A stretch of DNA of 64,000 nucleotides, from positions 96,001 through 160,000 of the IMG/VR virus record IMGVR_UViG_3300045988_171772. The stretch is one strand, 5' to 3'. Origin of the DNA: a virus. The stretch's first letter is position 1; the number at the start of each line of letters is the position of its first letter. Position numbers and translations under genes: made by a program. Positions 3,074 through 39,629 of the stretch are shown in pieces. The notes under the pieces were generated by a model. The model worked only from the letters and a program-made list of their open reading frames with translations, was not told the DNA's origin and made no database searches.

Positions 3074-4144
3074 TTATTTTATTCTCAGATATCCATCTTC
3101 TCCAGCGAAGAAATACTCATCTTGGATTCTATCTTTAGGGACTCCATAATCTTTCTCATCCTTGAAGGCATTCCTATGGAAATAGAGCTTCTTAATCCAA
3201 GGAATAACCTCCGGATGCTTGAGTAATACCTGAAATTCTTCCATATCAGTCTTATCATTGTCACAATAGATATGGACGTTTGCTTTATACATGAGACCAT
3301 TGTAGATGAGATATCTCAATATCGCTGCTGGTCCATATCCACAGATTGCAGCATAGATATTCCGATCATTATCCTCACCAAAGTTCTCATGAATACTGAT
3401 AATGTCAAAGGTCCCTTCTGCAATATAGACATTCAGAGGCTTCTCTGATACCATACTGATCGCACAGGGAATCATATAGAAAGATGCTGGATTATGATTC
3501 CTGGAATTCAATATGACCTTCATATATCTTCTTGCATTGGGATCCTTTCCTATATATCGGAATGTCAGGACATTATTCGACTGAGACAAGAATCCGACAT
3601 AGAAGAATTCAATATTGTGGATACTCCATTCTGACATCTGAAGATTCTGATACCAGATCTTATTTGCCGCACAGAATTTCAGAAGAGAAGGAACGATCTT
3701 GAGTCTCGGACAATCTTCCAGAGTTAGTTGCAATCCCAATCTCTGGTTGATATACTCCATTTTCTCTCTATTCTCTGGACAGTCATCTGGTACAGGAACG
3801 ATGAAATTCTCTATCTGGTCATTGGTGAAGAGATTTCTTCTTGCTGATCTTCTATTGAGAGATCGCAATTCTTTTACCATATCAGAATCTATATAGACAC
3901 CGACATCCTGAAGAAACTGATCATTGACCAGACCAGATACCTCACATTTGAAACACCGATAGACCATTGCAGAAGAATCATCATCTACATCGATCTTGAT
4001 ACTCAGATGACCATGTGTGGGATCATGAGAATCTCCACAATAAGGGCATCTTATAGTCCATTGTGTATGAGCGGAATTCGGTATACATACAGGGAGATCA
4101 TTCAATTTGGATAATACGATCTCTTTCAATTCTTTCGATACCAT
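3074..4144 (-). CDS. DNA primase (zinc-ribbon plus TOPRIM, DnaG/T7 gp4-like)
   Basis: CPYCGDSHDPTHGH...CFKC zinc ribbon. TOPRIM-like AEGTFDIISI and YCDNDKTD acidic motifs. 356 aa, TAA stop. Confidence 0.75.
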   Translation of the reverse strand: MVSKELKEIVLSKLNDLPVCIPNSAHTQWTIRCPYCGDSHDPTHGHLSIKIDVDDDSSAMVYRCFKCEVSGLVNDQFLQDVGVYIDSDMVKELRSLNRRSARRNLFTNDQIENFIVPVPDDCPENREKMEYINQRLGLQLTLEDCPRLKIVPSLLKFCAANKIWYQNLQMSEWSIHNIEFFYVGFLSQSNNVLTFRYIGKDPNARRYMKVILNSRNHNPASFYMIPCAISMVSEKPLNVYIAEGTFDIISIHENFGEDNDRNIYAAICGYGPAAILRYLIYNGLMYKANVHIYCDNDKTDMEEFQVLLKHPEVIPWIKKLYFHRNAFKDEKDYGVPKDRIQDEYFFAGEDGYLRIK

Positions 4145-5640: not shown

Positions 5641-6357
5641 ATGGGTAATGGAAACAATTTTGATCAGGATCGTAATCTGATCACAAAGAACGTATCGACA
5701 CTGTGGCCGGTTCCGCCGGTGGCCTTCAATCTTCTGGGCTATGTCCCGAATAAGGTCATCTATAATGTGTCGAAAGAGAAACTGGAGGCTGACATTCTGA
5801 AAGTCATCCAGAATTTCTCTCCGGACTTCAAGCTGGTTCGTTTTGAGGTGGATTCCCGTACCCACCAGATGAGTCTCTGGGCTTGGATCACCAAGAACTC
5901 CAAAGACATCGTCGACAACCGGTATCAGAACCGTTCGGATCTCATCATTCAGAACCCGATGATCAATCCGAGCAAGAATATGCGGATTCTGCAGTCCATC
6001 TTCGGCATTCGTCCCAAGGGCGATAAGAATAAGGGTGACAATCCGAGCTCTGATGAGGCCATCCAGCGTAAGTTTAACTTCGTCAAGCCCAGCAACGGTG
6101 ACAATCGTTTCGTCGGTACCGAGATGGATCTGGTTGTCGTCTTCCGTGAGATGTTTGACTGGGATGATCGGTATTATGTCAACTTCTATAACCGGATCTC
6201 GGACAAGAACCGTGCTGTCCAGCACAACTATGATCTGAATATTGCTCCGGTCATCGACAACCATGGACGCTGCAAGGCTTTCATCGTCTCCAAGACGACG
6301 ATGAATCCGAATGGCGTCGAGAATCTGCATCCGAAGCAGGCTCGTCGTCTGGACTAA
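5641..6357 (+). CDS. hypothetical protein, GC3-rich codon usage (probably abundant)
   Basis: ATG at 5641 follows AAAGGAGG. Codons are dominated by CTG/CCG/ATC/TTC/AAG, unlike neighbouring genes. A strong terminator follows. Confidence 0.75.
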   Translation: MGNGNNFDQDRNLITKNVSTLWPVPPVAFNLLGYVPNKVIYNVSKEKLEADILKVIQNFSPDFKLVRFEVDSRTHQMSLWAWITKNSKDIVDNRYQNRSDLIIQNPMINPSKNMRILQSIFGIRPKGDKNKGDNPSSDEAIQRKFNFVKPSNGDNRFVGTEMDLVVVFREMFDWDDRYYVNFYNRISDKNRAVQHNYDLNIAPVIDNHGRCKAFIVSKTTMNPNGVENLHPKQARRLD

Positions 6358-6372
6358 TCACTAAGAACTGAC

Positions 6373-6415
6373 ATGCAGGGACTTGAAAGAAAAAATCAAG
6401 TCCCTGCATTTTTAT
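6373..6415 (+). terminator. rho-independent terminator
   Basis: ATGCAGGGACTTGA (6373-6386) pairs with TCAAGTCCCTGCAT (6396-6409), followed by TTTTTATTTT. Confidence 0.8.
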
Positions 6416-6449
6416 TTTGATTTCTCTAAAGGAAAGGAATGAATTTCCT

Positions 6450-6998
6450 ATGGAATTAAAATGCGTAAAAATGAATCCAGAAGCACAGGATTTATATCGG
6501 TCTACTTCTGGATCTGCTGGATATGATGTCTCTATCTGTGATAATAGAGAACTTGATATGATTCGCAAATGGGCCAGAGAGAATCCCAAGCAATTGATCA
6601 AGTATCCTAAGATGACTACCATTGGTGGAGCTGTTGGTGGTCAATATTATCCCACCTATCAATTCTCTATTGAACCTGGAAAAAGTGCTACCATTCATAC
6701 TGGATTGGCAGTAGAGATACCCGAAGGATATGTAGGTCTGCTGGTAGCTCGCTCTGGTATCTCCAATCACTATGGGATTACTCCCAAGGATTGTATTGGA
6801 ATCATTGATTCTGATTATAGAGGAGAATTGATGGTCCATCTGGTCAATGACTCGGATCAGGAGTATTTCCTCTCTAAGAATGAGAGAGTATGTCAATTGG
6901 TAATCACTCCGTATATTGCTCCGGATATTGTCTATGTTGACAAACTCTCGGAGACGGAACGAGGAACGGGAGGATTTGGATCTTCTGGATCCAATTAA
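6450..6998 (+). CDS. dut: dUTP diphosphatase (trimeric dUTPase)
   Basis: All five trimeric dUTPase motifs are present: GSAGYD, ARSG, GIIDSDYRGE, RVCQLV and RGTGGFGSSG. There is an extra segment of about 35 aa after motif I. Confidence 0.9.
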   Translation: MELKCVKMNPEAQDLYRSTSGSAGYDVSICDNRELDMIRKWARENPKQLIKYPKMTTIGGAVGGQYYPTYQFSIEPGKSATIHTGLAVEIPEGYVGLLVARSGISNHYGITPKDCIGIIDSDYRGELMVHLVNDSDQEYFLSKNERVCQLVITPYIAPDIVYVDKLSETERGTGGFGSSGSN

Positions 6999-7005
6999 AG
7001 AATCT

Positions 7006-8169
7006 ATGGATGCATATTTCAACTATCACAAAGTAAAATTTGAAGTTTTGCATAGACTCATGAATCCCATAGCGAGAAGACACCAAATTCACAATGTCAA
7101 TGTCTTTATTAACCTGGATGATCTTCTTCATCGGTTACACAGGCCTGTGATCAATGATGAATTGACCATCTCGACATCAAATACCATTGTGAGACTGGTA
7201 TCTTCCATCATCAATATGGCAGCTCACTATAGAGAGTATATGATGAGAGAAGGATGGACTCCCAAGGTCTATCTATGTTACTCTTCTTCTTTTCACGGTC
7301 CTTTTCGGAATATGGTTTATATCGAAAATTATCGAGATCATTTCAAGACCATCAGCAGTGAATTGAATCAGGAGTATGCATATCTCAATCGAGTCATTCC
7401 TCCAGCTCTTAATCTTGTGAAATCCATCTGTCAGTATATTGACGGAGTCTATCTGGTAGATTCTACCTATGTGGAACCTTCTGTATTACCTCTAATTCTC
7501 TCTGAGATAAAACATGCCGATTATAATTTCCTTGTGACAAGAGATGAATATGACTATCAATATACCTCTTATCAGAATTGGGCTATCATCTATGCAAACT
7601 CGGATGAGGAGAAATCTGAATTGATTACCTCTTCCAATCTATGGAAGTTTGTCGCAGAAAAGAATAAGGTCAATACAGAGGATCTTAGTCTTGATTATCA
7701 GGCTTCTCTCTATTCCTTCGTCTTATCTGTGATAGGAAATCGATACAGAGGAATTCCTCGAATCAAGAAGTGCGGTTGGTCTCGGATTCTCTCTATTGTG
7801 GATGAGATATCCAAAGAGCCTACTTCCATCACTGCATCTACTCTAAGAGAGAAAGTCATTGATCGTCTAAAGGGTAAGACGTATCTCACCTTAGATCAGA
7901 TCAGTGCCAATCTCGCCTGTACGGATATCCAGACTCAATATCGTCGTCTCAATATGCAGACGAATTCTGTGTTGAGTATGGACCTTACGACACAAATGGT
8001 AGATGTCCCAGATTATGAAAATCTTCTCACTGTGGATCGCATCTACTTCAAAGACTATCATCTCAATATTCCCTTCTTAACCAAGCAGATGCCTGATTCT
8101 CCCATGGTGAATCGGAAATTTCGATTGGATAAGAAAGGTCCTAAGAAGAAGGAGGGAGATCCTGTATGA
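7006..8169 (+). CDS. hypothetical protein (weak PIN/FEN-like motif spacing only)
   Basis: Track ORF 6916..8169 trimmed to the ATG at 7006, just after the dut stop. VFINLDD, ENYRDHFK and LVTRDEYDYQ loosely recall 5'-3' exonuclease motifs, but the acidic residues are not conserved. Confidence 0.6.
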   Translation: MDAYFNYHKVKFEVLHRLMNPIARRHQIHNVNVFINLDDLLHRLHRPVINDELTISTSNTIVRLVSSIINMAAHYREYMMREGWTPKVYLCYSSSFHGPFRNMVYIENYRDHFKTISSELNQEYAYLNRVIPPALNLVKSICQYIDGVYLVDSTYVEPSVLPLILSEIKHADYNFLVTRDEYDYQYTSYQNWAIIYANSDEEKSELITSSNLWKFVAEKNKVNTEDLSLDYQASLYSFVLSVIGNRYRGIPRIKKCGWSRILSIVDEISKEPTSITASTLREKVIDRLKGKTYLTLDQISANLACTDIQTQYRRLNMQTNSVLSMDLTTQMVDVPDYENLLTVDRIYFKDYHLNIPFLTKQMPDSPMVNRKFRLDKKGPKKKEGDPV

Positions 8170-25071: not shown

Positions 25072-25105
25072 TTAGCCTATACACACTAGATATGAGGTGA
25101 CGCAA

Positions 25106-28100
25106 ATGCTTTTTACTGCAGTTGCCAAGAATCGAGTGTATAAGAATCAAGGGATCATTCCTTTTCCCAAAGGTGCTCCTGTAGGTAGAGGAAATCTCTT
25201 ATTTTTGTGCGCTCCAGATGAAAATTCCTCATTCTCTTTGATCAAAAATCCCACTATGGGTTTGAGTGATGCCCGCTATATTCGATATACCGCCGATACA
25301 CGGTATGTCGGTAAAGTAGGAAATCGCAATATCAAAGAAAATCGTCTGAAGGTATTGAAAGATACTTTCACAGAGGAATTTTCTAATTCTGAAATGAATC
25401 TCATTCTCCCCGCTAAGCTGGAGACTGTGATCAAAACCAATTACAATCTCATCTATGACTTTAGTCATTGGAATCGAATCTTCTTCACCTATCGGAGAAC
25501 TGGTAAGGTAGAATTCCTTTGTCAGAAATACATCGAATTTCTGATGAAGGCTTTCAATCGTTCTGAGTTCTCCTCTTATAAGAAGACACTTGTCCTTCCT
25601 ATCAAGGATTGGATGAGTGCTTCTTCTACCCATGAGATTGGTATCACGAAAGCGTATATGGATACCCCGATTTCTATTCTATGTGCCTGTGCCTATCGTT
25701 TTTCTAATCTCATCAAGATGGTGGAGAATGTCGAAATCTATCTGGTAGATCCTACCAATGGAGAATTTCTTCTCTTAGATTCCTCTTTCTTCAATAAGAA
25801 GATGTATCCGAAACTGAAGAATCTCCTGGGTAGAATGACTGCTGTGAAATTCTCTAAAGCCGAAGAGGAAGTATCTGACTCCGAAGGTAATATCAAGGAT
25901 ACCGATATTGCCAAATTGGATAATCAGGTCAAGAATGAGGTTAAGGAGATTCGCCATAAAGAGAAGGTCAAAGAGATTACCAATGTAATCACCGTTGACC
26001 CCTCGAATGAGAATCCCAAACCCGTTCAGTCTTCTTCTCCTGCACCTGCTCCTGTATCTGCAGAGAAGCCTACCTTTGTCAAACCCGAAAAGAAGACGAA
26101 GAAGGAATCTGCAGAGGATGATCTCATTGACTTCTTACTCAGTGAGGATGAAAAGGTAGATCAGACAGTAGCAGACTCTGCAGAAGATACAGAGCCTGAG
26201 ACCAATCCCACGGATGAAGATTCTGAAGAGGATAATATCGATAATGATATTGAATCTGAGGTTGACTCAGTCGTCTATGATTCTGATGAGGATGCTTCCG
26301 AAGAAGATATCATTGATACAGCTGAAAAGAGAGTGAAAGAGAAGGTACTGATCACCAAATTCAAACCTGACTTTGATGAAAAGACCACGGCTCGTATTCG
26401 CTCTCTTATGGATACACAGGATTCTATCATGAATCAGACTGTGCAAGAAATGAAGAAGAAAATCGTTCCTCCTGCAAATCTTGCACCGTATATCAATACG
26501 ATGAATCCTACCATCCAGAAGCCTAAGGCTAAGAATTTCTATAAGCAATACAATGAAACCACTTTTGAGACGGATATCGATAAAGCGGTTGCTAGTCTTG
26601 CTAAGGCAGATTATCCTCTCTTTATCCAAAAGAAAGAAGTAGAAGATACGTCCGATCTCATGAATATGAAGAAGACGTACACTTACACCATGGCGGATAA
26701 AGATGGGCATACCCATATCATTGCCTTTGATGTACCTATCTTCTTGGAGGATCGATATATCTTCCTTGGTGGTAATAAGAAGGTCATTGAGAATCAGATG
26801 CTGATTCTTCCTATTCTCAAATCTGGTCCTGATGAAGTGCAGCTCGTTACTTGGTATAATAAGATTATCATGAAGCGTAGCAGCATGAAGATCGATCAGA
26901 AATCTGAGATCATCAAGAAGTATATTCTGAATCCTCAGAATACTTCTAGATTCAAGGTAAGAATCGGTAGCTGCCAGATGAAAAATAAAGGTACCGATAC
27001 TTCTCTGGACTATGATAACCTGGCTAAGAATATTACCGAATGCACCATCTATGGGAATCGGTTTATCTTCGATACTGCCTATCTTCTGGAGGAGTATAAC
27101 AAGGTACTATCTAAAAATGGTAAGAAACCTATTTCTTCTACCTATGATGCGAATGATGGACTCCTGGTTGGATATAATACCCAGTCTGGCGATCCTATCT
27201 ATGCAAAAGAGGAGAATGGAAAGGGCGTCAATGATATCATTTATAATCTCTTCAAACCCCAGGATATTGCAATTCTTAAAAAGTATACCGTGACTCCTAG
27301 AAGTCTGATGTATGCTCGAGGGAAGATGTACAACCACATGATTCCTATGGTTGGATTCATGTGCTTCTGTGTTGGTTTGACAGAGGTTATGAATAGAGCC
27401 AATATCAAGTATCAGGTTATTGAACCCAATACTAGGTATGATGTCTTGAATCAGAGTGTCATCAAATTCAAAGACAAATGGCTCCTTTGGGATCATTATC
27501 CCTTACATGCATCTTTGATCATGAATGGTCTGTATCAGTATGACTTCAGTAACTATACCCTTGCGGAAGCAGATGGTAAGGAACTGTGGAATGATATCAT
27601 GGCCAATACCTACAAATCTACTCAGGCACTTTTCGTATTGGAGCAATTCAAAGACTTCTTCATTGATCCTATCAGTGCAGAAGTATTGCGGGATATGAAT
27701 ATGCCTACTGATATCGTAGGTCTGATCATTGCTGCTTGTATTCTTCTGAATAACTCTTCTTCGGAGGATATTACAGATCCGAAGAACTTCCGTATTAGAT
27801 CCAATGAGATCTTTGTCCAGTTTATCTATACGGCAGTCGTCAGAGGATATCTGGAATATCGGAAGTCTATCTATAAGAAGAGACCTGTGAAGGTTACTGT
27901 CGATAGAAGCGTGGTATCGAAATCGATCTATGGATCTACAGACAAGACTGGGCATAAACTTCCTTCTTGTGCCATGATCGAAGATTCTTCTATTCTGAAT
28001 CCTGTATTGGAGATGGAAAAGAAAGGATCAGTCTCCTTCAAGGGTCCTTCTGGTATCGGATTGGAGCAGGCTCTTACATTGCCTAAGAGATCTTTCAATC

Positions 28101-29293
28101 CTGGTATGACTGGTACCATTGCGATCTCTACTTCTCCTGATAGAAATGTCGGTGTTTCTAGACAGCTTACACTGGATCCGAACATCGTCTCTGTCAGAGG
28201 ATACATTGGAGATCATGATGAGGATGCGATCCGGGATATGAAGGGAGCCAATCTCTTCTCTCCTGCTGAATTGCTTTCTCCTCCTGGTGCTATGCATGAT
28301 GATAGTCAGCGTACGGCTATGGCCTATAAGCAGACAAAGTACATGGTCTTGACGGAGGGATCTTCTCCTGTCTTGATGGGTAATAAGGTAGAAGCTGCAT
28401 TGCCCTACTACCTGTCTAGAGACTACACAGTCGTAGCACAAGAAGATGGTAAAGTGGCTGCCATTGAGAATGATCAGGTCATCATTCAGTACAAGAATGG
28501 TCGATATGATTCCTTCTCTCTGGTACCGAAACAGCAAAAGAACTCTGCGGGTGGTTTCTACATCGAAGCGTCTTTCCAGACAGATCTCAAAGTTGGAGAT
28601 AAAGTCAAGAAAGGTGAAGTCGTTGCCTATAACCCCAGAGCCTTTACCAAGAATAAAGATGATCTGAGTGCTTCTATGAATATCGGTGTCCTTTGTAAGA
28701 TGGCAATCTGTCCTACATTTGACGAATATGAAGACTCTGCTCCTATCACGACTGAGCTGTCTAAGAGACTTGCTACTGTCATGGTACATGAGCAGAGAGT
28801 AGTATTGTCTAAGGACGCCGTAGTCTATATGATGTCTAAGATTGGTCAGCATGTCGAAGTTGGTGATTCTCTCATTGAGTATGATAACTCCAATGAAGAT
28901 CCCACTATGGCAGAATTGTGGGCCAATATGGCAGAGACATATGGAGAAGCTCTTACAGATGTCGCCATTACCAAATTCAAGTCTGAATTCTCTGGTGAGA
29001 TTACCAATATCAAGATCTACTCTGCTGTGGATGGAGAAGAACTCTCTGACAAGTCTCTGAGAAAGATCGTCCAAGATTATTGGAATACCATCAAGAAGAG
29101 AAATAAGACTCTGGAAAAATACCGGAATCCCGATGATCCTAAGTTCATGCCTTGTGGACAGCAGATCACAGAAATTCCTGGTAAGGTAGAAGCAAAGTTT
29201 GGGAAAATCCTCGGCGAAAATGTCGGGGATGGTGTCCTCTTCTGCTTCTATATCAAACACAAAGATATCGTCAAGAAAGGCGATAAAGTCACT
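25106..29293 (+). CDS. multisubunit RNA polymerase beta-like subunit, exon 1
   Basis: GAGGTG RBS before the ATG at 25106. KGPSGIGLEQALTLPKRSFNPGMTGTIAISTSPDRNVGV parallels the beta motif LGPGGL...R..H....G.ICP.ETPEG.N.GL. HDDSQRTAMAYKQTKY parallels (E)HDDANRALMG.NMQRQA. The exon ends ...KKGDKVT at a codon boundary. Confidence 0.85.
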
Positions 29294-29633
29294 GAGAGAA
29301 AATGGCCGTTTAATTGGTGACTCTAAACCCATTTAACTGCTGGAATATCTCGCTAGGTCTTTACTACTCTAAGGAGTGATAATGTAAAGAATAGAGACAA
29401 TCAGCATCCAAGATCTTTCTTATATAAGAAGGATAAGGTTCATCGACTATCGAAAGCATAGTCTATAGAGAAATCTATAGACGAAGAAGCGAGTAGAGTA
29501 CCGAGTATCTTCCTACACATTGATTCTCTCCAAGAAGATACTTCTGGGAAAAGGTGGGCAATTCTATATCTGGTAACTAGGATATAGAATTGAAGATATA
29601 GTCAGGCCTCATAGAGATATGAGTGGAGAAAAG
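29294..29633 (+). ncRNA. group I self-splicing intron (340 nt, no internal ORF)
   Basis: P1: exon AGTCACT pairs with GGTGACT (29316-29322), with a terminal U-G wobble. P10: exon 2 AATTA pairs with TAATT (29311-29315). J8/7-P7 block AAGATATAGTC at 29593-29603. P9 hairpin with GAGA loop. Last nucleotide is G at 29633. Confidence 0.8.
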
Positions 29634-29846
29634 AATTATACGGCCTTGAAGGGTATCGTATCCAATGTCATTGATCCTGGATATGAACCTAGATCTGAAT
29701 ATAGACCCGATGAAGAGATCTCTATTCTGATGGCACCCGGAGCTGTTCTTGCTCGTAAGACTCCTTCGGTCATTCTCTCAATGTTTACCAATAAGGTGAT
29801 CATTGAATTGAAGAGACATCTAAAAGAAGACTATCTCGGGGAATAA
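29634..29846 (+). CDS. RNA polymerase beta-like subunit, exon 2
   Basis: NYTALKGIVSNVIDPGYEP...ISILMAPGAVLARKTPS continues the beta motif GDK..(R)(H)G.KGV.S....EDMP....DI.LNP.GVPSRM. Joining to exon 1 keeps the frame (1399 + 70 aa). TAA stop, then a hairpin. Confidence 0.8.
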   Translation, partial: NYTALKGIVSNVIDPGYEPRSEYRPDEEISILMAPGAVLARKTPSVILSMFTNKVIIELKRHLKEDYLGE

Positions 29847-31746: not shown

Positions 31747-31822
31747 TGGAGCTAGTGACAGGAATCGAACCTGCAACCTGCTGATTACAAATCAGCTGCA
31801 CTGCCAATTGTGCTACACTAGC
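31747..31822 (-). tRNA. tRNA-Thr (anticodon UGU), CCA encoded
   Basis: Hand-folded cloverleaf. Acceptor GCTAGTG/CACTAGC. Anticodon stem GCTGA/TCAGC with loop TTTGTAA. T-arm GCAGG-TTCGATT-CCTGT. 3' TCCA. Confidence 0.9.
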
Positions 31823-32055: not shown

Positions 32056-32130
32056 GCGGCGGTCGTACAACGGCTAGTATATCAGCCTTCCAAGCTGAGG
32101 ACGAGGGTTCGATTCCCTTTCGCCGCTCCA
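32056..32130 (+). tRNA. tRNA-Gly (anticodon UCC), CCA encoded
   Basis: Acceptor GCGGCGG/TCGCCGC. Anticodon stem TCAGC/GCTGA with loop CTTCCAA. T-loop GGTTCGATTCC. 3' TCCA. Confidence 0.9.
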
Positions 32131-35898: not shown

Positions 35899-36258
35899 AT
35901 GGGTAAGCTGTTTGAAGATATCCAGACTGCTATGGAAAACGATCGTTCCATCAATGATCAGATTGCGGATGAGATCGCTATGAATGAGGATGCTGATGAA
36001 GAGCTGAATGTCAGACTCCTGGGTCAGTATTCTGCCTATGCAGAAGATATGGAAGATGATGGTATCGATCCCGATCTGGGTGAAGATACCGATGATGATG
36101 TCGATGATCTGCTGAATGCCACTGCCGATGAGGATGATGGGTATTCTATGGGATCTGACATCAATCCTGAGATTGTCAGTGACACTGTCAAGGAAGAGGA
36201 TTACGATGATGACATTGATGACGACTTCTTTGATGATGCTGACGATGACGATATGTAA
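35899..36258 (+). CDS. extremely acidic small protein (119 aa)
   Basis: AGGAGGG RBS. Roughly 40 percent Asp plus Glu, ending DDDFFDDADDDDM. Confidence 0.7.
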   Translation: MGKLFEDIQTAMENDRSINDQIADEIAMNEDADEELNVRLLGQYSAYAEDMEDDGIDPDLGEDTDDDVDDLLNATADEDDGYSMGSDINPEIVSDTVKEEDYDDDIDDDFFDDADDDDM

Positions 36259-36391: not shown

Positions 36392-36728
36392 TGATGGTTC
36401 CTCCGATGGTTAATGAGATGCATCATCTATGATCGAGTATCTTTTCCTCAATTTTCAATTAGTTGATATTATTGAGCGCCATTTTATACAGGATCAATTG
36501 AGTATACAATATCAATGATATCATTTATCGTTGAAAAACTAGGATGTGTCATGATGATTATCTCTTAACTAAGCCTCCATGTATATATCGGGAATACATG
36601 GAGGATTTTTTATTTTTCAACGAAATTAAGGTCCCAAGTAATGACTATAGATTGAGTCATTACTTGGGATTTATATGTCTCTAATTCTCATCTATTTCAA
36701 CCAATGAATTAAAAGGAGGGATTTATAT

Positions 36729-37749
36729 TTGTCTACGATAGTAAATATGATTGATGAAGATATAGACTACAGAAAAGTCTACAGAGAGATTGACAATCTC
36801 GGTGATGATGAGGGACAAAATAAAGCCCCAGACATAGACTTTTCATCCCCTGGGTGGACAAACCCAGACAGTGATAAGGTCGAGCAGTTAATTAAGACTG
36901 ATATTAAGACTCTTACTAAGGTAGCTGAATTAAAGAAGAGCTACGATTTCAAGACCAAGAATAAATCCTTCTTGGAATTGTATCGTGATCTTCACTCATT
37001 AGGTATCAAGAATAATAAATTCTTCTTGGTCATCTATGACAGATCTCTGATTGGAGTAGATCCTTTCTCTGAGGCCCTACCTTTATCTACCAAACTGAGA
37101 ATTATCGTAGAATGTATGCGAAATCCTTGGTATTGGTTACGAGAGATTTGTAGAGTTCCTCAGGATGGTTCTGCCATTGAACCAGGAGGAGGTTCTGAAT
37201 TCATGATAGATAGAACCTCAGCTGCTGCTTGGTATTGCTTTATTAACCATATCGACCATTATCTATGTAAACCTCGTCAGACTGGTAAGACCCATTGTGC
37301 CTTATCAGAGATTGACTATGGGTATACCTTTGGATGTAAGTCTTCTACCATTCTCTTTGCTAATAAAGATGCTGAGAATAATAAGATGAATCTCTATCGA
37401 CTGAAATGTCATAGAGATATGCTTCCCTCTTATATGCATATGAAGACGACCATAGACATGGCAGGAAATCTCATTAAGGAGAAGAATAGTGTTACGACAA
37501 TTCGCAATCCTGTGAATAATAATAACATTAAACTTCTTCCGAGAGCCAATAGCAAAGATTCTGCTATGACCTGTGGACGTGGCGCTACATCGTCTTTGAT
37601 GTATTTTGACGAATGGGACTTTATACCCTACCAAGTCGAAATAATGAATAGCGCTGCCTTTGCGTATTCAAGAGCGAGCGAAAATGCTGCTAAGTCAGGA
37701 TCACTATACAGCCGTATATATTCCTCAACTCCTTTAAAGACGGATATTT
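36729..37749 (+). CDS. terL: terminase large subunit, exon 1 (ATPase)
   Basis: TTG start 8 nt after AAAAGGAGGG. Walker A KPRQTGKT. Walker B LMYFDEWDF. Coupling motif YSSTP. The exon ends after ...TDI plus 1 nt. Confidence 0.85.
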
Positions 37750-38163
37750 ACTACGAACTCCCACTAATGAAATTATAGATGGAGAAGAATCTGATAGTAG
37801 TGAATATTCGAAAAGGGCCATATAATAGTGATATTATATGGGATCTTCGTGAACTGCTGGGATATCTCTTATTAGAGACGATCAGCAGCCAAGCTTCTTT
37901 CTATATAGAGAGGAGAAGGTTCAACGACTATCGAAAGCACAGGCATAGGAGTAATCCATATGTCGTAGAGCAAGTAGAGTACAGCCAAGCTATTGGGTAG
38001 GTATATAGGTGATAATAGTCTATAGTAAATCCTTTAAATGGAAGTGCGAAGTATCTCTATAGGACGAATATCGCCATATAGAGATAAAGATATAGTCTGA
38101 TTCCCATAGTAATATGGGCGGGTTTCTTATGTAAACCGGTGAGAGTGTAGCGGACTCTCATGG
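37750..38163 (+). ncRNA. group I self-splicing intron (about 414 nt, no endonuclease ORF), paralogue of the RNAP intron
   Basis: 14-bp P1: exon/intron CGGATATTT|ACTAC pairs with GTAGTGAATATTCG (37797-37810), with the splice-site U-G wobble inside the helix. P2 hairpin at 37818-37841. AAGATATAGTC at 38087-38097. P9 hairpin with GTAA loop plus two more hairpins. Terminal G at 38163, with an alternative at 38175. Confidence 0.75.
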
Positions 38164-39629
38164 ACACAATGGGTGACTTAGATTCTAGAGATGGAGCTGC
38201 TGCTACTGAGTGGCTTTCTCATACTCTCAAGTGGGAAGAAAAATTTTATGATGTCCCTATCGAGAAACTTAGAGCTATGGTTAATGACAACCAATCCAAG
38301 AGGAATGGTGTCATGTGGATCGAGCATTCTTGGAAGCAATTAAAGAAGACACAGGCTTGGTTTGAGAATCAGTGCCGTCTCGTAAACTGGTCTTTGGAAG
38401 TAATCGCGAGGGAGATTGAGCTTAAGAGATTGCATGGCTCTTCTCTGTCTCCCTTCAAGAGAGAAGACATCATGTATATCCAAGCGAATAAAAGAACTCC
38501 GATTGGCGAGATTGATCTTAGTAAAAATATGTGTCCCTTCAAATTCTATAAGAAGATAAAGAAAAGCATTCCTTACTTTATCTGCATTGACCCATCGGAA
38601 GGTCTTGCTCTGGATAACAATGCAATCGAGATTGAATCTCCTTATACCCTTGAAGTGGTATGTGAGATGAAGAATCCCTATATTTCCCAACCAGATCTAT
38701 CTGATATGCTTGTGAAGTTTATGGATCTCTTCTGTCCCAATGCTCTTCTCATTATAGAGAATAACAAGGGTAGAGAATTGATCAACTGTCTCAGAAAGAC
38801 CAAGTATGCAAACCGTATCTGGTATGATACTGGTAAGATGCTGGATGTATCTGAGAAATTGAATAAGTATGGTATGCAGGCTAGAGATTCTCTGGAAAGA
38901 AGAGCATATGGTCTGTCTACCACAAATGCCAGTAGAGCTGTCATGATGGGTATCCTTGAAAGAATGATGGATGAAGAGAAGAGAAAGTTCGTATCAGAGT
39001 ATGTCGTAGATGACATTAGTGCTCTGATTCGTACTCCTTCTGGTAAAATCCAAGCAGCTCAAGGTCAACATGATGACAATATCATGGCCTATCTTTTTGG
39101 TCCCTATATCAAATTCAATTCCAATAATCTGGAAGAATTTGGAATTGATATACATGATATAGACCCAGATGAGGAATCTCTGATGGGGAATATCAGACAA
39201 GTACCAGAAGAGAATAAACCTCTTACTGAAGAAGATCAAATCTTGAAATTGAGAGAAATGTATCCAGATCTTCCTACTGATATCCAAGCTCTCTTGAAAG
39301 ACAATCTCTTCGGTATGAAGGGCGTAAGATTGAAATCCGATCAGGAAGAGAGAAAGAGCTCTGTGCAGCAGATGAAACTGCAACAGACGGCTTCTCAATT
39401 CATCAAGGATGAGACTGTCGATGACTATAAGAGATTGATTGCCTCTAGTACCAGACAGAGATCTCCTTCTGAAGTAGATTATAATTATGACTATGATGGA
39501 GGAGTGCCTTCTGATGATGTCATGATGGATGGAGCTCAGACAGATCGATTCTATGATCATATGTTTGACTCTATCGGTGATTATGAGGCTCAGAATCCGA
39601 ATACCTTTGATCTCAATGACTATATTTAA
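38164..39629 (+). CDS. terL: terminase large subunit, exon 2 (nuclease)
   Basis: ICIDPSEG, IENNKG and HDDNIMAYL fit the RNase H-like terminase nuclease motifs. Joining exon 1 (1021 nt) to this exon (1466 nt) gives 829 in-frame codons. Confidence 0.8.

Follow-up and report, generated by a model that had tools for sequence, protein, structure and literature searches.

The gene for the large terminase subunit (terL) is divided, in this 64-kb stretch of viral DNA (hereafter the window), between two open reading frames, and the locus raises the question of what separates them and between which nucleotides the coding sequence would be rejoined. The original prediction was a group I intron at 37750-38163, just after the SSTP motif. 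Sequence comparisons indicate that the answer is very probably a different interval, 37734-38171, representing an endonuclease-less group I intron, probably of the IA type, in terL of an AR9/phiKZ-related, gut-metagenome jumbo phage.

The two halves of the gene had been accurately described: KPRQTGKT, FDEWDF and SSTP are encoded by the first ORF (36729-37778), which ends at a TAG codon (37776-78), IDPSEG and HDDNIMA by the second (38160-39629). The two ORFs share the same reading frame. An Infernal scan with RF00028, proposed at the time as a check, was performed on the whole window as part of an Rfam scan at the gathering threshold, corresponding to a score of 50 for this family. A match was found on the + strand at 37800-38119, extending over the full model (1-253), with 81.3 bits and an E-value of 4.3e-19. 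This score is far beyond chance and leaves no doubt that the two terL ORFs are separated by a group I ribozyme; homologues agree that terL is split after SSTP, between its ATPase and nuclease halves. The in-frame stop codons after the Pro codon exclude an intein.

The boundaries were placed by comparison with intron-less alleles (L001-L003; loci and contigs are designated by L numbers) and with the introns occupying the same site in L004, L005, L009, L010, L067, L066, L070, L043, L013 and Bacillus phage AR9. With a slash marking the junction, the intron-less DNA reads ACG CCA/GGA GAT CTG, where the window has ACT CCT, 438 nt and then GGT GAC TTA. Since intron-less alleles and full-length homologues alike read SSTP/GDLD, without LKTDIYTM, the intron is assigned to 37734-38171. 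A single pair of boundaries, U37733 and G38171, restores Pro-Gly with a U before the intron and a G at its end, G38171 being the only G-terminated in-frame end which gives CCU/GGU. The predicted ligated junction is ACUCCU/GGUGAC, in DNA TCAACTCCT joined to GGTGACTTAGAT. The features of the gene are the following:

36729-37733, + strand: terL exon 1, ATPase half, ending TCC TCA ACT CCT (SSTP)
37734-38171, + strand: group I intron, 438 nt (RF00028, intron-less alleles L001-L003, same-site introns)
38171, + strand: terminal guanosine (omega G), with the predicted 3' splice site after G38171 (AUG/GGU)
38172-39629, + strand: terL exon 2, nuclease half, GDLDSRDG... to the stop codon

Neither end of the interval proposed earlier withstands the comparison with intron-less alleles and homologues. 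The 5' site had been placed after 37749, and the intron starts 16 nt further 5'; the 3' end had been placed at 38163, and lies 8 nt further 3'; the alternative 3' site, 38175, is also wrong. The products implied by these sites (...TDIY-TMGDLD... and ...TDIY-LDSRDG...) do not match the homologues. What is found in the intron-less alleles and in the homologues is SSTP/GDLD, a junction that the original prediction had itself named as contrary to it. Judged by these alignments, SSTP/GDLD is the real terL junction, and the interval 37750-38163 falls within the real intron.

Removal of 37734-38171 yields a predicted TerL of 820 aa, reading ...SSTPGDLDSRDG..., and restores an uninterrupted protein collinear with homologues P0001 and P0002. 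Exon 1, whose TTG start codon follows a strong AAGGAGG, is by itself collinear with these intron-less homologues up to the Pro codon. The 820-aa product matches the PHROG terminase large subunit in one stretch, residues 71-656, spanning the junction (phrog_32359 at 5e-42, phrog_2 at 1e-25); Pfam searches on the two separate ORF halves returned nothing useful. TerL was linked by tblastn to annotated AR9-like TerLs (2e-89), and its nearest cultured relatives are those of AR9-like Bacillus jumbo phages (31-33% identity), Staphylococcus jumbo phages and phiKZ-like phages. When the 828-aa product of the original prediction was searched against the protein collection, the best matches were the uninterrupted, 820-aa P0001 (98%) and P0002 (96%); more distant uninterrupted homologues measure 813-827 aa. 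Alignment to TerL homologues, also suggested beforehand, places LKTDIYTM in that product as eight extra residues at SSTP/GDLD. In 110 of the 111 full-length homologues, G or A comes immediately after STP; the remaining one gave a regular-expression match to TTPLQ only. The exons of the window and of L004, which bears the intron, differ at 56 nt and only 7 aa, pointing to selection on the coding sequence. The split TerL of Staphylococcus phage Madawaska was discarded, its break being at a different site. Gene callers split terL into two ORFs, and its product is to be built as SSTP/GDLD, without the eight extra residues.

Structure of the ribozyme and position of P1

For the fold of the window intron, P1, P3 and P4 were imposed and both strands of P7 were kept unpaired, their positions being derived from the Rfam alignment and from sequence motifs. 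At the 3' end, a minimum free energy solution pairing the 3' exon with the P9.1 sequence was dropped, and replaced by the comparative helices P9.1 and P9.2. Nine same-site introns were aligned after removal of the variable P1-loop insert (alignment A1). The elements identified are listed by position:

37731-37735, + strand: P1 5' strand (exon CCU/intron UU), predicted 5' splice site after U37733
37741-37810, + strand: lineage-specific P1-loop insert, with a 14-bp stem, CGGATATTTACTAC with GTAGTGAATATTCG (constrained fold)
37813-37817, + strand: internal guide sequence (AAGGG), directly 5' of P2, pairing with 37731-37735
37818-37841, + strand: P2, perfect 10-bp stem with a GUGA loop
37845-37849, + strand: P3 5' strand (CUUCG), partner strand 38047-38051; paired in 100% of cells, with a single compensatory change
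37854-59 with 37883-88, + strand: P4 (Rfam alignment, fold, A1)
37865-69 with 37874-78, + strand: P5 (Rfam alignment, fold, A1)
37889-90 with 37918-19, + strand: P6 (Rfam alignment, fold, A1)
37894-902 with 37907-915, + strand: P6a, both-side changes in 7 of 9 pairs
37926-37930, + strand: P7 5' strand (GACUA), pairing with UAGUC at 38093-38097; invariant in 9 of 9
37942-64, + strand: P7.1, peripheral, between P7 and P3'
37985-96 and 38005-23, + strand: P7.2, peripheral, between P7 and P3'
38047-38051, + strand: P3 3' strand (CGAAG) (fold and alignment)
38052-38086, + strand: P8 hairpin (Rfam alignment, fold, A1)
38087-38097, + strand: J8/7 and P7 3' strand (AAGAUAUAGUC), conserved catalytic-core segment
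38103-38118, + strand: P9, GUAA loop
38121-25 with 38133-37, + strand: P9.1, comparative helix
38140-46 with 38154-60, + strand: P9.2, conserved GUAGCG loop

Standard pairs make up 91.7% of the cells in A1; sliding the 3' partners by 1-3 columns lowers this to 37-47%. Changes on both sides are present in 35 of the 93 pairs, and the covariation score was reached by none of 500 shuffles. Compensatory changes in the conserved catalytic core and helices argue for selection on the ribozyme. Several of these elements had already been recognized in the original prediction: the P2 hairpin at 37818-37841 was confirmed in the fold and in the alignment, AAGATATAGTC is present at 38087-38097, and the Rfam scan and the fold recovered the three 3' hairpins, the first with a GTAA loop. 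The latter (P9, P9.1 and P9.2, helices 14-16 of the alignment) are 93-100% paired and show compensatory changes, such as A38108G/T38113C in P9 between the window and L004. UUCAAC, corresponding to J6/7, directly precedes the P7 5' strand. P7.1 and P7.2 are contained within a 116-nt segment between P7 and P3', where helices 9-12 are 90-97% paired, again with compensatory changes. Their location corresponds to the topology of subgroup IA, the usual phage type, to which the intron is provisionally assigned from its helix topology.

In all nine introns, the exon CCU pairs with a GGG directly 5' of P2. Each of the three exon pairs (C-G, C-G and U.G, the last being U37733.G37815 in the window) is found in 9 of 9 sequences; the +1 intron pair covaries (AU and UA in three sequences each, CG, GC and GU in one each), and at exon position -4 three sequences have an A-U pair and two a G-C pair. 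When the search is confined to the roughly 60 nt 5' of P4, the exon end finds its best duplex beside P2 or P3; the distance to P4 is 32-35 nt for seven of the nine introns scored, 27 nt for L005 and 13 nt for L043, which has no P2.

The P1 of the window is weak. It consists of 5 bp, with only three exon pairs, and exon U(-4) faces C37818 in a U x C mismatch. The register of lowest energy in the window is shifted by one base, with U37733 opposite A37814, and an unconstrained duplex search favours pairing of the exon CUCC with GGAG at 37781-84, in the loop insert. The latter pairing was rejected as P1, because the insert is absent from the other same-site introns and no U.G would be formed at the cleavage site. 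The U37733.G37815 register was adopted by homology as the probable one; energy in the window alone does not single it out. No convincing P10 pairing of GGUGAC with the 5' portion of the guide was seen by eye.

From these elements we infer that the window intron is spliced. P1 would form in the pre-mRNA by pairing of the exon CCU and the intron UU with AAGGG (37813-17), upstream of P2. An external guanosine, held in the P7 pocket, would attack after U37733, the U of the U.G wobble; the terminal G38171 would then occupy the same pocket, and the exons would be joined as ...ACU CCU/GGU GAC....

A different P1 had been proposed originally, a 14-bp helix formed by 37741-54 and 37797-810, in which the wobble U37749.G37802 marked the 5' splice site. 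Both the helix and the wobble pair exist; the helix, however, is a stem of the P1 loop rather than P1, and the wobble is not a splice site, G37802 being replaced by A in L004. In the constrained fold, the stem is capped by a small hairpin, CUCC 37758-61 with GGAG 37781-84. This region is wholly different in L005, L009, L010, L067 and L066. The introns of the window and its sister contig L004 show 25 differences, of which 11, the change of G37802 included, are located in the insert. Stems covarying in place are seen in the P1 loops of L005, L009 and L010 (ACCUCU with AGAGGU, ACGCCUA with UAGGCGU, GUCUAUUU with AAAUAGAC). The P1 loop is where the family varies, and the 14-bp helix is a lineage-specific stem that closes an insert there. 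A long and strong helix with a U.G near the 5' end of an intron is insufficient for calling P1, for which intron-less alleles are a better guide.

Within the insert, 37755-37762 reads GAACUCCC, a near-copy of the exon end CAACUCCU, and is paired to the GGAG at 37781-37784, which is energetically the best partner for the real exon end too. Because of this near-copy, and of a 14-bp stem with its own U.G, the insert could compete with the weak P1. An active insert, making splicing and terminase production conditional, or providing an occasional second 5' site at 37749, is considered very unlikely.

Introns at the same site, in known phages and elsewhere in the window

Same-site introns were searched for in the gene neighbourhoods of half-length TerL matches and by a pattern scan of metagenome contigs. 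A degenerate 25-mer from the core identified 66 metagenome loci, while the exact core 28-mer had no match among the IMG/VR viral contigs. The related contigs derive from human gut and from Ga-prefixed JGI metagenomes. Eleven further introns occupy the same terL site, including the fourth intron of AR9. Those of L004 (438 nt) and L070 (445 nt) are close to the window intron; L005 (identical to L006), L009 and L010 carry introns of 518-538 nt, and much longer ones are present in L067 (1508 nt) and L066 (1468 nt). The site is also occupied in the L015 group and in L043 and L013, whose TerLs are only 34-38% identical to that of the window. The intron form of the window, with intact exons, is carried by four or more independent contigs (window, L004, L070, L050).

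The exon ends in CCT in every case, followed by a GGN codon or, in AR9, by AAT (Asn), and the last intron base is G in 11 of the 12 same-site introns, the exception being the L015 group. The first 20-30 intron bases differ among lineages (TTAAAGACGG, AATTTTTACC, CCAATTTACG, GAATTTGTGT, GAAACGAGAA), and in L005, L009 and L010 the 5' sequence of the intron reaches an in-frame stop. Since these first bases are unrelated across lineages and contain stops in the latter three, LKTDIY is not a conserved coding sequence.

The exceptional intron (L015 5406-5650, identical in L018, L020 and L042) ends ...AACAAAATTA/GGTGAC. No G-terminated in-frame 3' end gives TCTP/GDLD in L015, and the intron-less L059 and L060 read TCTPGDLD; either the intron lacks the customary terminal G, or the copy is defective. 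Related jumbo-phage terL genes (L013, L015, L043, L060, L075 and the AR9 locus, L011 2565-5766) contain up to four group I introns, whose breakpoints recur around residues 184-186 (Walker A) and 290 (Walker B), as well as at 335/336, the site of the window.

The comparison with AR9 is based on its GenBank annotation and on an alignment made here. The terL gene of AR9/PBS1 (KU878088, AR9_g121) is annotated as a join of five pieces and shows four RF00028 matches; the window gene has one intron and AR9 four. The fourth AR9 intron lies at TTTP/NDLD, by tblastn and inspection, which is the insertion site of the window. Although the two TerLs are only about 31% identical, the 5' exon 8-mer CAACUCCU is the same, both exons ending in CAACTCCT, and the P1 of AR9 resembles that of the window in the pairing of CCU with GGG, the U.G wobble, the GGGC guide and the mismatch at -4. 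The two introns also share the core sequences GGUUCAACGACUAUCGAAA and AAGAUAUAGUC, P9.1, P9.2 with a GUAGCG loop, and an AUG end (...AAATG/ in AR9). They differ in size (310 nt in AR9, 438 nt in the window), in the P1 loop, which is 4 nt in AR9 and holds an insert of about 77 nt in the window, and in P7.2, most of which is missing in AR9.

Classical phage introns of subgroup IA are those of T4 td, nrdB and sunY, of the SPO1 and Bastille DNA polymerase genes, and of Twort; terL introns are known in Lactobacillus phage LL-H. Classical and other terL phage introns are self-splicing ribozymes placed, as is the window intron, at a conserved motif of an essential gene. They belong to different phage lineages and occupy different insertion sites, and HNH or other homing endonucleases are often found in them, whereas the window copy, which is predicted to splice, has none. 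When the whole terL gene was compared by blastn with cultured phages, only the ribozyme core was matched. Group I introns in terL of Bastillevirinae splice both in vitro and in vivo (PMC11878797), and in the Jug jumbo phages of the gut group I introns cut terL into two or three parts, as metatranscriptome reads support (PMC12880540). The window intron adds an ordinary case to a familiar class of phage introns, at a site already annotated in the TerL of AR9.

A second RF00028 match is present in the window, at 29280-29624 (+ strand, 75.2 bits), within 25097-29846. It is presumably the one counted as first in the original prediction, and interrupts a 1407-aa ORF matching the PHROG 'RNA polymerase beta subunit' (2e-133), whose frame resumes around 29619 (...GEKNYTALKGIVS...). 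A similar situation exists in AR9-like phages: in vB_BpuM-BpSp, the blastn match to the intron core lies under an annotated RNA polymerase beta-subunit gene. Two tRNA genes are located a few kb upstream of terL, at 31750-31822 (- strand) and 32056-32127 (+ strand), with Rfam scores of 71.5 and 59.7 bits; a tRNA with the same score is found at the edge of the related contig L066. Just upstream of terL, an ORF at 35899-36258 (+ strand) encodes an extremely acidic (D/E-rich) 119-aa protein, and gene calls of equal length (119 aa) occupy the corresponding position in L002, L003, L004 and L009. Two strong hairpins, noticed by sequence reading only, also precede terL at 36574-36613 and 36633-36672: one, CCTCCATGTAT...ATACATGGAGG followed by a T-run, is terminator-like, and the other is a perfect 14-bp inverted repeat, CCCAAGTAATGACT...AGTCATTACTTGGG.

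Alternative explanations and turnover of the intron

With an intron at 37750-38163, or ending at 38175, the 14-bp helix would act as P1 and an 828-aa (or 824-aa) TerL would retain LKTDIY(TM), the predicted junction being AUUU/ACACAAUG (GATATTT/ACACAATG in DNA). The helix is indeed real and strong and includes a U.G pair, the join at G38163 is in frame, and the GG directly after P9.2 is conserved in relatives. However, no insert after STP is seen in any of the 110 clear matches among 111 full-length proteins, exactly these 24 nt are missing from the intron-less alleles, and unrelated sequence replaces LKTDIY in other same-site introns, with stops in L005, L009 and L010. The insert would moreover fall in the most conserved TerL motif, and in L004 the helix is imperfect, with A for the wobble G. 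This makes the reading extremely improbable. Hardly any more weight can be given to a terminase made as two polypeptides (ATPase of 349 aa, nuclease of 489 aa) from an unspliced RNA carrying an inert intron-like segment. Both pieces are ORFs with possible start codons, and gene callers annotate the halves separately in relatives; but ATG 38160 is not preceded by a Shine-Dalgarno sequence, and relatives begin their second ORF differently (MDTM, MQTGESVATLTDTM, MGDLD). The maintenance of the catalytic core and helices by compensatory changes, the constant U at the end of the exon and the G at the end of the intron also speak against it.

An intron in decay, no longer spliced efficiently and leaving terL defective in this phage variant, is very unlikely, too. 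The short P1 with its mismatch at exon -4, the absence of a homing endonuclease and the competing exon mimic in the P1 loop would be in line with decay. Against it, the same form is found with intact exons in the at least four independent contigs mentioned above, exon changes are mostly synonymous, and the exon CAACUCCU, the GGGC guide and the -4 mismatch are all shared with AR9, which is a cultured and viable phage. The preferred reading remains a spliced intron at 37734-38171.

No endonuclease ORF is contained in the window intron: its only ORF, of 73 aa (37779-38000), belongs to no known family, having neither Pfam nor PHROG matches. In L067 and L066, in contrast, the P1 loop holds an ORF of 354-356 aa, antisense to both the intron and terL. 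The one in L067 (2607-3677, - strand) matches HNH_3 and NUMOD4, and its insert is closed by a perfect 25-bp stem (2585-2609 with about 3681-3705); the endonuclease gene of L066 is located within 5972-7439 (reverse complement). No homologue of the L067 HNH protein was found anywhere in the 64-kb window. The introns of L067 and L066 resemble that of the window in the 3' two-thirds of the ribozyme, which are nearly identical, in the 3' exon sequence GGTGACTTA and in a TerL 92-98% identical; besides the antisense ORF, they differ in P2 and in the pair between exon -4 and the guide (G-C). Since all three forms are found at this site, empty, endonuclease-bearing and endonuclease-less alleles coexist among TerLs 92-98% identical. 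The window copy would represent the endonuclease-less form of a mobile intron, whose P1 loop houses an antisense HNH gene in relatives, and we infer a history of endonuclease loss in its lineage.

The exons flanking the site were compared with those of the intron-less L001, in which the target sequence reads ...AGCACGCCAGGAGATCTG.... Only 59 of 2463 positions differ, changing 8 amino acids, and 15 of them are found between -31 and +8 of the junction (window 37702-37741 and 38172-38180), ten being within ten bases either side of the insertion site. Despite these clustered differences, the flanking motif GSLYSRIYSSTP/GDLDSRDG is identical in the two, so that it is synonymous differences that cluster at the site. 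The stretch from -31 to -10 also differs between the intron-bearing window and L004, and this short region is a mosaic. The 3' exon 9-mer GGTGACTTA accompanies the intron in six lineages (L004, L070, L067, L066, L043 and the L015 group), being shared by L043 and L015 even though the TerL proteins are only 34-38% identical. Clustered differences and a common 3' exon are what co-conversion of flanks during homing would produce, as expected for a mobile intron; recoding which protects the occupied site and supplies the U for P1 may contribute as well.

The locus neatly illustrates how a mobile intron passes through its life cycle in nature, with recoded flanks marking the exchange, and occupancy of this site extends to TerLs as remote as the one of Bacillus phage AR9.
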